This document shows, piece by piece, positions 35,114 to 56,063 of a DNA stretch of 64,000 nucleotides. A program made the translations under genes and the position numbers. Below the pieces are notes generated by a model. It was not told where the DNA came from, searched no databases, and worked only from the letters and a program-made list of their open reading frames with translations. The stretch is from Mobula hypostoma (taxonomy: Eukaryota): the NCBI RefSeq assembly GCF_963921235.1, contig NC_086108.1, positions 48,858,001 through 48,922,000 of the forward strand, read 5' to 3'. How positions within the stretch are numbered: position 1 is the stretch's first letter; every line of letters begins with the position of its first letter.

Positions 35114-38100
35114 GTGAGTGGATTGACACATTCAAGATTCTCTCTGGTATAAATGTACTGTTTGAAGTCAGTATTTAATGACACGTGAGTTCTCGTGCTT
35201 AACTGTTCCAAGATGTACTCCTGGTTTGCATTTTGATTGTCTGCACTACAGTGCTGGAGACTCTTTCCCTGTTACAAAACTAAGGTTTGATCCATGACTG
35301 ATCTGCTCACTGCTGTGATGAATATTTTAGAAAAGCAAAATTGTCTTTGAATACTCTCTCTTGATCACTACGCTATAATTCTTTTTGTTAATGTGTGAGT
35401 GCAATATTGATAATAGAAAATTGCCAATCAAATTTGTTTCAGGATATGCCTGAATGTTTTATGGCTGTGGCAGTACTTTATGAAAACGGTCAGTTTTGAA
35501 ATATCAGATTTTCCATGACTTATATCAGTGTTCTGAATTCAATCCATAGTGTATGTTTTTTATAAAAATTAATTTTTAACAATTCCTCAAACATTTTTTG
35601 AAAGATTCTTTAATCTCATCAAAAGGATTCATAAACTTTGGCATTTGTAACAGTGTGCTCCTTTCATGATGTCCCTTCTGTATTGCAGTGAAGAAAATTA
35701 ATTACCTGTGGTTCTTGGTTTCTATTGATGTCAGAAGCTATTAATCTTCTAGGCAAGCAGAAAATTAAGCATTATTTTGTAGTGACAATTTACATAATTG
35801 TTTAATTACTGCCCATTACGCCGCTGGTGTTTAGGGCTGCAATGAAGGTCCTCCATCTCTGTTGTGCCACGGGTGTCGCTCAGGGTCCTCATTTCTGCCT
35901 CTGCAGTACAATGCCAAGTTGTCTTTGGTCTCCCAGGTTTCTTCTACCCTTCAGGGTTCCAGTTGAGTGCTGTCTTGATGAAGTTGGCCTGTCTTCTCAT
36001 CACATGCCCAATCAATCTGCTGCATTTCCTCATAGTTGTGGCCATGTCCCCTTGATGACACTGAAGGTGTAGGGCATGGTTGGAGACCTTGGCCAGAATT
36101 TAGAGGATCTTCTGGAGGTTTTTGGTATGGAATAGCAACAGCTTGGCAAAGTCGTTCTGTCATATGCCAGCATTCTGACCTGTACAAGTGTTGACAGAAC
36201 ACCTCTCTAGTACAGCTTCACCTTGGTGTGGACGCTGTACTCGGTTGATCCCCATATGTTGCTCATTGATCTGAAGATGTTTCCAGCTTTCAGTCTGCAC
36301 TGGATGTCATCCTTGGCCCCACCATCTGCTGAAGGATGCTGCTCAGCTAGGTGAATCTGCATCAGCAGAGTAAGTCGACACCATATGACAGGAGGAGGAT
36401 GACTTGGAGACTTGCATTGAGGTCACGCTCTCGGTCTTTCTCTGGCTGACTCCAAGTCTAACCTATCCACCAAAGTTGCAGGAGCTGAGCTTTCTCTTGC
36501 TTGTGCTGGTAAGTATGTGATAGTAATACAAGGTCATCCGCACAACCGAGCTCTTCTAAAGTAGAGAACAGAGTCCAGCTAATGTCTCCCTGCTTGTTGT
36601 TCATTGAGTGGGTTATGAAACATCACCAACATCCCAGATCCTTGCCTGACTCCTGTCTTGACTTCAAAGCTCAAATTGCGGTCCCCAACTGCAGGTAAAA
36701 TTAGCATAGAAAATGTGGACAAAAGATGGACAATTTTGGAAAGGATCCTATGTGACCTGGGAATTCACAAGCAGCACTCCCTGTGGATGCTATCGAAAGC
36801 CTTTTCAACATCCATGAAATTCACATACAGTTGTCTCTGCCACCCTATACTGTTCTATGATGTTACAGGGTGAAGCTCTGGTCAGTTCAGCCTTCATTCT
36901 TCCTGAACCCAGCTTGCTCTTTCCTCAATCACATATCACAGCATCTAATCCATTGGGCAATGACCTTGGCGAGAATAATGCTGGGCACTGACAAAAGTGT
37001 GATGCCTCACCAGTTGTTGCGATCACTTAGCGCTCCTTTCTTTGGGATCCTAACAATAACTCCCTTTGTCCGGTTCCTGGGTGCTGGTCTCCGTTCCCAG
37101 ATTAGAGTAAACAGTGGTTGTAGGATGAATACTGCAACTTCTGGTTCAGCTTTGAACGTTTGGTGTTCAAATTATATACGGGAGCTTTAATGATTGAATT
37201 GCAGCAACAACCTGTTGGGTGCTTCTGTGATGTTGAGGTCCTCTGCAGCCTCGTGTATATCCAGTTCTTCATCTGCTGTGCTCCATTTGGTAATTCTTTG
37301 AAATACTGTATCGTGCTTCTTGCTGTTTTTTTTCAATGATTGAAACAGACTGTTCCCATCTTTCACGGGACCACTGGATGTGGCCTGGAACTTTCCGCAT
37401 ACCAGTTTTAAAATCTTGTATGTATTTCCCTGCTGCTTTGGCCTCTGCAAGGTCTTCCACGTAGACTCTTTTCCTTTGTTACAAATCCCTTCACTTTCAT
37501 GTTAGCTTCAGTGTATGCTAGTTCAAGTTTCACTTTAATTCCAGTTGGTTTTCCATCTAGCACTTCCTTGATAATTTTCCATCTTTCTTGTATTGCTGTC
37601 CATGTTTCCATTTTTTTCCTTCTTTCCAGCTCTGTATCCTAGACAAGCCTCACTGCTCTTCTTGAAGACTGAGGCAATCGGTTTCCACACTGGCAATCTT
37701 GTCTACTGACACATCCACATCAAGGTATTGCAAGGCCTGGACTCTGTTCTTAAGCTGAACGGTGAATGCAGGTCTCACACAGGTGTCCTTGAGCTTCTCA
37801 ACATTAAATTGTCTCCGTACATGTGCTGTGGTTCCAGTGCCTCTCGGCTTGAGTTTCATCCCAGCTACAACAGGTGGATACTTCCTGTATCTGCTCCTTT
37901 CTTCACCTTTACATCCTGCAAGGATCATCTCCACGTATCATTGATCATCAAATAGTCAATCTGGTTCTTGTCGCATCCATTGGATGAGCACCATGTCAAT
38001 TTGTAGATTTCAGTGTGGAAAGATGGTCCCTTCTTGGATCAGATTGTTCATGGCACAGAATTCCACCATTGTTCATCGTTCCACGTTCATGTATGCCTAT

Positions 38101-38506
38101 GGCCCCAATGAACTGAGTTACTTCCCACTTTCGCATTTTGATCTCCCAGGATTATTATGTCAAGGTCTGGTGTTAATTCTACCTCTGATTGCAGCTCTTC
38201 ATTGAAGGCGCCCTTTTCTTCAATGTTGCTGTGGTTAGTTGGAGCATAGCACTGGATTAGCCATGTTCACTTGCTTCCCTTTCAGCCTGACTCTCACCAG
38301 CCTACTGATTGGTTTCTGCTTGAGGCCTTTTTTCAAAATGACAGCCACACCATCATGATGCTGACATCTTTCCCTTCCAAGTGTAAAACTGTTTCACCAG
38401 TTGCTGCCTTTAGTCTGCCAGACCCAGTCCATCTGTTTTCACTGATGCCCAGACTATGTAGGCTGTAATGATGGATTTCTGCAGTTATTTATGCTGGCAT
38501 GCCAGT

Positions 38507-39075
38507 GTTATATATGGTTGTATGGGGTGTCAGGGAGGGGTAGCACCTCTGGTGGGGGAACATGTCACGTCCTTTTCAGGGCGGTTAGTCCACCTTTGGT
38601 CCCCACCTGGCACTCAGCTGTCACCTGTGGCTCCCCGTAGCTGTTTGCATGCGACAGCGGCCACAACCCGCGGAACGGTTTCGACAAGCCGGCTAAACCA
38701 GATGAGGGCAGCCGACGGGTCTCAAACCCTTGGTGTGATAGAGAGTTGTCTATCCCAGCATGTGAAGACAGACTCCGGCGGATTGAGCGGATGAGACCAA
38801 TGGAAGGTCCAACGGTCAAGAAGGCAGTCTCTGCAAGCGTCGTGGAACGTGTAGAGCAGGACAAGACACAGAAGACGTCCTGGTCATCCACTGCGCCCAG
38901 TCCCATCTCCAGCCATCTAGACTCTGTCTTGCCACTGGATCCAGATGGGAATTGGGAAGAGAGAGTGAGGCTGACGCTGCGCAACTCTCCCTCACTTAAA
39001 TCCAAATCACGCGCTAGTCTCGACACCATCATAATGGTGTCGAGGTCCTCATCGACGTCAACGATGGACGAACAA
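38507..39075 (+). mobile_element. 569-bp non-coding retroposon inserted in the RTE
   Basis: CCAGT duplicated at 38502-38506 and 39076-39080; the host APE-region sequence resumes across it. Structured 5' part and 3' hairpins. Confidence 0.8.
38524..38705 (+). ncRNA. Candidate HDV-like self-cleaving ribozyme
   Basis: Order of elements: P1 GGGGUGU, P2 UCACCUGU, P3 GGC, L3 UCC.., P3' GCC, P1' ACAACCC, P4 CGGUUU/AAGCCG, GCUAA, P2' ACCAGAUGA. P1.1 is imperfect. Confidence 0.5.
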
Positions 39076-39727
39076 CCAGTCATACATTCCAGAAACCAGT
39101 TTTAGTTTGGTCTTGGTGGTGTTCAGGGCTTCCTTCATTGTGCTAGCAGCTTCCACTCTGTGTTCACTACCGTTTGTCATGCAAACTCGGGAATGCCGTC
39201 ACACACAGATATCGAATGAACCTTCATAGCTGTTTTTATAACAATTGTTTTTTGAGTAGCTTATCCCTGAGCTGGACTCCTGAACCTGGAGGACCGGTGG
39301 ACCACTCTTAGTCTGGCCTCTACCCTTTGACCTGTTTGGCACGGGTGACCCTACCAGGAGTCAAAGCACAAGGCCCTGCTGCCAGCTAGCATAACTTACC
39401 AGGTCACTGAGGCACACAAGCCTCCAAACCCAATGACAAGGTTATGGTCCTCTTGCTCCTCATTTGTAATAGTGTGCGGCTTTCTTTTGACATGCCTCCT
39501 GTATTGCTGTAAAGAGAATTTATTACCTGTGATAGTTCCTAGTTTCTATTGATGTGAGAAGTTGTTAATCTTCCGGGCAAGCGGTGAATTGAGCAATTAT
39601 TTTGTAGTGTGACAATTGATCTAGATTTTTAAAAACTATGGATTTGTTTCAAGCAATCTTGAATGAAGGCAGCTGTAAATTTGTATTCAGTACATTATCG
39701 ATTTTATTCCCCCCCCCCCACCCCCAG

Positions 39728-54928: not shown

Positions 54929-56063
54929 GCCGCCGGACCCGCCCTGTCCACCGATACTGCCGCCGGACCCCCCCGCCCACCGATACTGCCGCCGGACCCC
55001 CCCGCCCACCGATACTGCCGCCGGACCCCCCCGCTCACAGATACTGCCGCCGGACACGCCCCGCCCACCGATACTGCCGCCGGACACGCCCCGCCCACCG
55101 ATACTGCCGCCGGACACGCACCGCCCACCGATACTGCCGCCGGACACGCCCCGCCCACCGATACTGCCGCCGGACACGCCCCGCCCACCGATACTGCCGC
55201 CGGACACCACCCGCCCACCGATACTGCCGCCGGACACCACCCGCCCACCGATACTGCCGCCGGACACGCCCCGCCCACCGATACTGCCGCCGGACACGCC
55301 CCGCCCACCGATACTGCCGCCGGACACGCCCCGCCCACCGATACTGCCGCCGGACACGCCCCGCCCACCGATACTGCCGCCGGACACCACCCGCCCACCG
55401 ATACTGCCGCCGGACACGCCCCGCCCACCGATACTGCCGCCGGACACCACCCGCCCACCGATACTGCCGCCGGACACCACCCGCCCACCGATACTGCCGC
55501 CGGACACCACTCGCCCACTGATACTGCCGCCGGACCCCCCCGCCCACCGATACTGCCGCCGGACACGCACCGCCCACCGATACTGCCGCCGGACACCACC
55601 CGCCCACCGATACTGCCGCCGGACACCACCCGCCCACTGATACTGCCGCCGGACACGCCCCGCCCACCGTTACTGCCGCCGGACCCCCCCGCCCACCGAT
55701 ACTGCCGCCGGACACCACCCGCCCACTGATGCTGCCGCCGGACCCCCCCGCCCACCGATACTGCCGCCGGACACGCCCCGCCCACCGTTACTGCCGCCGG
55801 ACCCCCCCGCCCACTGATACTGCCGCCGGACCCCCCCGCCCACCGATACTGCCGCCGGACACCACCCGCCCACTGATGCTGCCGCCGGACACGCCCCGCC
55901 CACCGATACTGCCGCCGGACCCCCCCGCCCACTGATGCTGCCGCCGGACCCCCCCGCCCACCGATACTGCCGCCGGACACGCCCCGCCCACCGATACTGC
56001 CGCCGGACACGCCCCGCCTACCGATGATGCCGCTGGACACGCCCCGCCCACTGATGCTGCCGG
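54929..56063. repeat. GC-rich minisatellite, ~38 units of 29-30 bp (CCGCCCACCGATACTGCCGCCGGAC + ACGCC/ACCAC/CCCC/ACGCA)
   Basis: Units counted by eye; head-to-tail with no unique spacers. Confidence 0.97.

Follow-up and report, generated by a model that had tools for sequence, protein, structure and literature searches.

A young bipartite RTE derivative with a predicted HDV-like ribozyme head and complementary LINE-end arms at its deletion seam

The closest described relatives of the element reported here are the bipartite, ORF-less RTE derivatives (RTE-N1/N2_Lch, RTESINE1/2, MAR4_MD, WALLSI3 and Bov-A), which likewise consist of the 5' and 3' ends of one LINE without its ORF, carry a microsatellite tail and have amplified on their own (Kojima 2018, PMC5786205). 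The cause of this bipartite structure was stated there to be 'not yet known'; a search of its main text for 'stem' and 'base pair' gave no match, and no pairing between the two parts was met there. According to its supplement, WALLSI1, RTE-1_PSi and RTE-3_AMi have a 5'-UTR box and a tail type in common with our element, hereafter family A. A second point of comparison is provided by the HDV-like ribozymes, for which a descriptor with an L3 core U-C-C-N-C-G and a C in J4/2 is available (PMC6326823).

The window, that is, the whole stretch of 64,000 nucleotides analysed here, belongs to a genome of 3.48 Gb. Positions 55001-56000 have a GC content of 75% and strong skews, unlike the remainder of the window. 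One copy of family A lies within an older RTE LINE carried on the opposite strand (arm5 and arm3 denote two complementary stretches near the ends of an RTE LINE, described below):

35800..38519, minus strand: 3' part of the host, an older RTE LINE of another subgroup, with its own arm3 at 35837-35848 (host-family alignment)
38520..39077, plus strand: bipartite non-autonomous RTE copy of family A, 5'-truncated by about 5 nt, 96.8% identical to the family majority
39081..39455, minus strand: 5' part of the host RTE, with its own arm5 at 39221-39232 (host-family alignment)

A sequence-only reading of this locus had proposed a discrete, non-coding insert without a tRNA head, belonging to a ribozyme-headed, non-autonomous retroposon family. 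Searches for copies, tRNAs, proteins and Pfam domains bear out the first part of this description, the structure of the copies together with the predicted fold supports the second, and the motifs it listed were found in the DNA at the positions it gave. A genome search with the insert yielded 3,961 candidate places, the best 40 of the 3,961 being 95-100% identical and near full length, and an 18-letter motif close to the seam has at least 1,948 exact matches genome-wide, SINE and LINE copies counted together. Family A is young, its 48 aligned copies being 95.6-98.9% identical to their own majority. The tails are CAA/CCAA repeats, and target-site duplications of 7-13 bp flank 53 of 84 copies, 41 of the 53 beginning with A, which is the pattern described for CAA-tailed RTEs (PMC6007223). 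The tRNA search of the insert found no tRNA head, and a head derived from tRNA, 5S or 7SL RNA gave no near-threshold Rfam match; the head is LINE-derived. A 154-codon stop-free frame over the body has no homolog among the longer proteins searched and no Pfam match. Among the rows of sequencing-run matches, 20 of 24 contained part of the element, the four rows examined being contigs; no relative was found among viral contigs. We read the insert as a dead copy of a non-coding bipartite RTE derivative that carries the ends of one RTE LINE only. A SINE subfamily with a tail loop 2 nt shorter and with seam variants was also seen (L099-L128; 171 pattern matches in total, a few of them LINE tails), as were two SINE copies (L084, L085) at the start of contig C13 that look identical and lie 57 kb from each other, probably a tandem or segmental duplication.

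The boundaries of the insert had to be redrawn. A CCAGT target-site duplication and a 17-nt low-complexity leader had been proposed. When the locus was aligned with 20 further host RTE copies, positions 38502-38519, which include 13 of the 17 leader bases, proved to belong to the host, whose sequence resumes at 39081. Therefore, CCAGT is not a clean duplication, the window copy lacks a clean one in the host-copy alignment, and the element extends from about 38520 to 39077.

No partner LINE had been named at the outset, and a search for a LINE sharing both ends was suggested. This search led to an RTE LINE family in the same genome, of which, on the alignments, the element is an internal-deletion derivative. 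A pattern search for a LINE with the identical tail returned 18 matches, all SINE variants or truncations, the tail of the partner differing slightly from that of the SINE. Allowing a different loop length in the tail pattern gave RTE LINEs of the same tail type, and the sequence behind the seam in one of them (L133, a full-length RTE LINE with a 71% match to the element head) then led to the closer family. The partner is about 4.05 kb long and shares its first ~520 nt and last ~44 nt with the element: the majority of eight LINE copies is identical to the SINE at 511 of 522 head positions and 40 of 44 tail positions, with one APE+RT frame in between. All the 5' sequence kept in the element lies upstream of that frame, and no ORF remains. 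The frame encodes a single APE and RT, without ORF1 and with a C-terminal Cys/His motif; the RTE class of the partner was assigned from this layout and from UTR motifs that match, by eye, those of RTE-1_PSi and RTE-3_AMi. Its closest named protein relatives among 120 listed (81%) come from a shark and a turtle, and the genome is accordingly taken as probably that of a cartilaginous fish. Five diagnostic sites split 48 SINE from 30 LINE copies (for example 47:0 versus 4:17), so that the SINE form must have spread from its own masters. No intact-looking partner was seen among the 30 LINE copies; one has a stop-free frame of 1,109 codons (L186:210-3536 (-)), and it is decayed by many substitutions, one of them hitting a zinc-finger cysteine. 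Another copy (L188) has head and tail in opposite orientation, an internal inversion. The youngest RTE family, LY (L273-L282; 97-98% between copies), is younger than the partner family and has a similar tail, so that its protein, as well as that of the partner, may have moved the youngest copies; it combines the same box and tail type with a different, GC-rich head, possibly a 5' switch. In a further family, LC (L283-L292), an HDV-like core whose L3 is short and plain can be made out by eye, and about 100 conserved bases lie upstream of this core.

The LINE-derived 5' part of the element is organized as follows:

38520..38523, plus strand: remnant of the first GGGGTGT repeat; in full copies this repeat corresponds to 38515-38521, supplies the P1 5' strand and forms the 5' end of the family (copy alignment, fold)
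38524..38616, plus strand: J1/2 domain (majority fold), including P1.2, which pairs the second repeat at 38525-38533 with 38607-38615 (pair probabilities 0.92-0.98)
38618..38628, plus strand: P2 5' strand, pairing with 38697-38708; G38620 is private (copies, fold)
38629..38662, plus strand: P3 (38629-31/38660-62), L3 core U-C-C-C-C-G-U (38632-38) and an inserted 6-bp hairpin (38640-38658) (fold)
38663..38671, plus strand: P1 3' strand and P1.1 GG position; A38666 and C38671 are private (copies, fold)
38676..38708, plus strand: P4 (38676-79/38688-91), J4/2 with the putative catalytic C38693, and P2 3' strand, with A38702 private (copies, fold, Rfam)
38709..38975, plus strand: body, from the LINE 5' UTR, non-coding (LINE alignment)

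According to the fold models, the head of family A likely forms an HDV-like ribozyme with an extra hairpin in L3, and would then cut itself. The nested double-pseudoknot set (P1, P1.1, P2, P3 and P4) is complete in the family majorities, those of the older sister family B and of the old LINE family LO included, and in a metagenome contig, L198, and broken in the window copy. The odd bases at 38620, 38666, 38671, 38673 and 38702 each occur in one of 48 aligned copies, the window's own, and the family A majority restores P1, P1.1 and P2. Thus, the GC in place of GG in P1.1, which the sequence-only reading had regarded as unusual, and the mismatches that it noted in P1 and P2 are private decay of this copy, and a consensus without P1/P1.1 pairing, which it had named as fatal to its proposal, is not what the copies give. 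Since its first five bases are gone and P1, P1.1 and P2 are interrupted, the window copy is very likely inactive. The order P2, P3, L3 with its 19-nt hairpin, P4 and C38693 agrees, as had been proposed, with both the copies and the majority fold. A J1/2 hairpin GGUGGGG/CCCCACC did not survive, having a probability of 0.01 in the majority fold and being broken in three relatives. The usual L3 of HDV-like ribozymes is short, 7-8 nt. That of family A is 28 nt long including the 19-nt hairpin, which is found in all five lineages behind a U-C-C-N-N-G-U core. The U-C-C-N-C-G core and the J4/2 C are present in A and in its LINE; in B, LO and L198, the C that precedes the L3 G is replaced by A. The sequence of J4/2 is C-U-A-A, as in RF02682, and G-C-C-A-A in the LO majority. 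Two intact heads scored 12.0 and 12.3 bits against this HDV-class Rfam model, short of its gathering threshold of 44, and the window copy and region gave no relevant Rfam match. Nested folding, a model without pseudoknots, prefers a state lacking P1 by 3.6 kcal/mol.

The family head begins with two tandem GGGGTGT repeats, either of which is able to serve as the P1 5' strand. The sequence-only reading chose the second, with cleavage before G38524, and proposed to check whether copy ends cluster there. This register allows 7/7 pairs in the majorities of A, LINE, LO and B, and a few copies do start at the second repeat. However, of 59 copies selected on their 3' ends, 17 are truncated past the first 30 nt; of the other 42, 36 start at the first repeat (38515), 9 nt upstream, 4 at the second and 2 elsewhere, one of the 36 being the window copy itself, counted through chance matches of host bases. 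The ends do pile up at GGGGTGT, then, at the first of the two repeats and not at G38524. P1 drawn on the first repeat has 7/7 pairs in the same four majorities and also in L198, where this repeat and the P1 3' strand change together from G-C to U-A, leaving the second register with 3/7 pairs; in B, a P4 pair has changed from G-C to C-G. The covariation score of the five real sequences was reached by 0 of 500 shuffles in the first register and by 183 of 500 in the second; it is modest support, because the five sequences are related to one another and contribute three double changes, of which one results from decay of the window copy. It is silent on the competing UGUGGC/GCCACA helix, which never varies. 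With the second repeat bound in P1.2, a forced fold 5.4 kcal/mol worse and no covariation, a P1 on the second repeat was rejected, and we regard it as very improbable. One could also suppose that the head contains no active ribozyme, that an internal polymerase II promoter or a reverse transcriptase stop accounts for its sharp 5' end, and that the fold does another job or is a relic. The length of L3, the Rfam scores far under threshold, the deviant J4/2 of LO, the missing C in B, LO and L198 and the wholly different head of LY would all fit this. Yet lineages that are ~65-76% identical retain all five helices as well as P1.1, the U and G of L3 and the C of J4/2, the element 5' ends coincide with G1 of P1 in 36 of the 42 near-full copies, and RTE ribozymes have been reported to cut at the element 5' end (PMC3774820). 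An inactive head is thus improbable in our judgement, and a ribozyme predicted to cut at the first repeat is retained.

The 3' part of the element contains the junction between the two LINE ends:

38976..39018, plus strand: conserved box of RTE 5' UTRs, with a short closing helix (fold, co-folding)
39019..39029, plus strand: arm5, from the LINE 5' UTR (LINE alignment, fold)
39030..39033, plus strand: deletion seam (~39031/39032), where ~3.5 kb of the LINE including the ORF is missing (LINE alignment)
39034..39044, plus strand: arm3, derived from the 3' end of the LINE and beginning inside the stop codon of the ORF; 11/11 pairs with arm5 (LINE alignment, fold)
39045..39077, plus strand: RTE tail hairpin (39045-39069) and CAA/CCAA-type tail (copies, fold)

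A 3' stem followed by a tail hairpin had been noticed from the sequence, and both are real (z -3.99; 1 of 200 shuffles as good), the stem having 11 bp instead of 10. What had gone unnoticed is that this stem marks the deletion seam: 39019-39044 brings an arm of the LINE 5' UTR together with one that, in the LINE, lies 3.5 kb away from it at the 3' end. Eleven of the 12 LINE copies scored have 8-10 of 10 arm pairs, the twelfth being mis-anchored.

In every RTE family examined, arm5 begins right after the conserved box, arm3 ends right before the tail hairpin, and the arm sequences differ. Material from metagenomes contributed to the set: nine of 75 loci found were examined, six have both ends (L198, L200, L202 and L213-215, L215 being left unscored), and L208, L230 and L241 have no recognisable tail. 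Across eight families, with about 64-68% ORF identity over long alignments, 62 of 80 positions form Watson-Crick pairs in the fixed register and 16-28 when the arms are slid by 1-3 nt, with anchors set by hand after six of the eight families were already known. The summed energy of the cognate duplexes is the best of 40,320 permutations, or of 5,040 when LY is omitted; in this comparison the weaker copies L133 (-9.8) and L213 (-13.4) were replaced by L177 and L214, the LC arms were taken from two copies, and LY and L198 share arm5. Taken singly, the cognate site is the best in only two of seven elements (0, 62, 121, 15, 43, 0 and 25 of ~930-1,000 windows as good). Three sequences were retrieved after the idea had been set down, namely the LY 3' arm, the LC 5' arm and the host majority, and they fit: LY has 11/12 pairs, LC a two-part helix, and the host majority 11/11 pairs plus six further ones, the host copy in the window keeping 10/12. 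On co-folding, box helix, arm helix and tail hairpin stand in series in five of the eight families. The same register can be read, by eye and without a null, in LINEs of the supplement to PMC5786205: RTE-3_AMi (9/9 pairs), BovB (8/8), RTE-1_PSi (9/9, one pair being changed on both sides in a compensatory manner) and RTE1_LA (7 pairs, one G-U). In this supplement, read in the same way, WALLSI1 (8/9), BOVA2 (9/9), SINE-1_Pmo, HaSE1 and MonoRep87B (11/11) have a seam hairpin, weaker in WALLSI2, SINE2-1_EC and SINE2-2_ACar.

Could the complementarity be due to chance, or to the hand-set anchors? Six families were already known when the anchors were set, many of the sites are not unique when taken singly and the published cases were counted by eye, all of which would be expected if so. 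Against this stand the exact register, the differing arm sequences, the first rank among permutations and the fit of the later-retrieved and published families, which make chance hardly credible. A different question is what the helix does. It may be real and lie outside protein recognition, serving translation, RNA stability or post-termination release, with bipartite elements arising as a mere by-product of reverse transcriptase jumps at the helix. The ORF stop does lie at or inside arm3, 10-16 nt before the tail, in six of the eight families. Moreover, the sister family B (L061-L080), which is older, ~540 bp long, about 66-87% identical between copies and 76% identical to A, and has the same ribozyme head, retains box and tail, separated by only 5 nt, and has no arm helix (majority; 5 of 20 copies matched by pattern). 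Internal deletions are also present in 7 of the 20 host-family matches (L293-L312), with seams that differ; six of the seven rejoin within ~16 nt of arm3, the rejoining points clustering just above it, and the 5' breakpoints are biased by the query. These deletions, read from the alignments, would be expected from jumps at the helix no less than from selection for a signal. One of them (L295) has lost part of arm3, and since B has no helix at all, the helix cannot always be needed in a short element; judging from family B, adjacency of box and tail can be enough. On the other hand, the box that precedes arm5 has been retained in families A and B, and also in tRNA- or 5S-headed SINEs that lack the remainder of the 5' UTR (PMC5786205 Table 1, Fig. 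S1), and non-coding elements have no use for a translation signal. The by-product and recognition roles are not mutually exclusive, and we hold a helix without any part in recognition to be unlikely.

The explanation that we favour, a bipartite RTE derivative, likely cut by a ribozyme and likely copied in trans, with arms that pair the LINE end to end and a birth by reverse transcriptase jump, has as a whole a probability of about 0.7. A read-through host transcript would be trimmed by the HDV-like ribozyme, which would cut the element RNA out at its first G; the L3 hairpin would sit where L3 loops out at its 3' end and would thus leave the U-C-C-N-C-G core undisturbed. In the LINE RNA, a long-range helix between arm5 and arm3 would leave the ORF as a loop and bring the 5'-UTR box directly next to the tail hairpin, and the RTE protein would bind the joined box-helix-tail unit. 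Useful deletion products would then have to keep both halves, as we propose. The deletion could have arisen when the reverse transcriptase jumped across the base of the loop, so that what had been a long-range helix became the local hairpin 39019-39044, and the RTE protein, acting in trans, would copy the element back by target-primed reverse transcription. Extended to RTE as a clade, the proposal becomes an even bet: RTE RNAs in general would close by a sequence-variable 9-14-bp helix between the end of the 5'-UTR box and the first bases past the stop, the box, helix and tail acting as a composite signal and as a full-length check, and this would be the cause of the bipartite RTE SINEs with a seam hairpin, from Bov-A to WALLSI, family A having in addition an HDV-like ribozyme with an L3 helix.

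If true, a conserved end-to-end helix would give a concrete cause for the frequent bipartite derivatives of RTE. It also predicts that tails filed as 'unknown 3'' are RTE 3' ends; thus, the 'unknown 3' part' of MonoRep87A/B is probably one, because arm pairing and tail hairpin are found there in the RTE register (PMC5786205 Fig. S1). In gene insertion with RTE-1_MD, the payload is placed between the 5' UTR and the 3' UTR of the element (PMC13708176), and a pairing rule therefore bears on template design. The L3 hairpin, if the ribozyme is active, widens the descriptors used to search for HDV-like ribozymes.

Family A belongs to a known class, the bipartite non-autonomous RTE elements, and differs from those described by a longer 5' part (~520 nt) and a full ribozyme fold. 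With the HDV-like ribozymes of R2, L1Tc/NARTc and RTE (PMC3774820, PMC6765202, PMC4035085), it shares the nested double pseudoknot, G1, the position at the element 5' end, two G-C pairs in P1.1, the U-C-C-N-C-G L3, the J4/2 C and a long structured J1/2. Unlike them, it carries at the 3' end of L3 an insertion that forms a conserved 6-bp hairpin, and it uses a duplicated P1-like repeat for P1.2. In Ty1 and flaviviruses, complementary arms at both RNA ends are needed for replication. These represent other element classes with other priming, and their 5'-3' pairing is an analogy only. The ribozyme-fold variant and the proposed clade-wide end pairing are new as far as the literature was searched: neither end pairing nor an L3 helix was found in the accessible parts of a set including PMC6007223, PMC7245038, PMC13295347, PMC13708176, PMC6765202, PMC4035085, PMC13635239, PMC3774820, PMC6326823 and bioRxiv 2022.11.04.512097, with Ruminski 2011, Gogolevsky 2008, patents and Repbase/Dfam entries outside its scope. 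Finally, the 3'-terminal hairpin of RTE LINEs and Au-like SINEs, which shows compensatory changes and was proposed as a reverse transcriptase signal (PMC6007223), is the same local tail hairpin as that of family A, where, in contrast, a second, long-range helix directly abuts it and brings in the 5'-UTR box.
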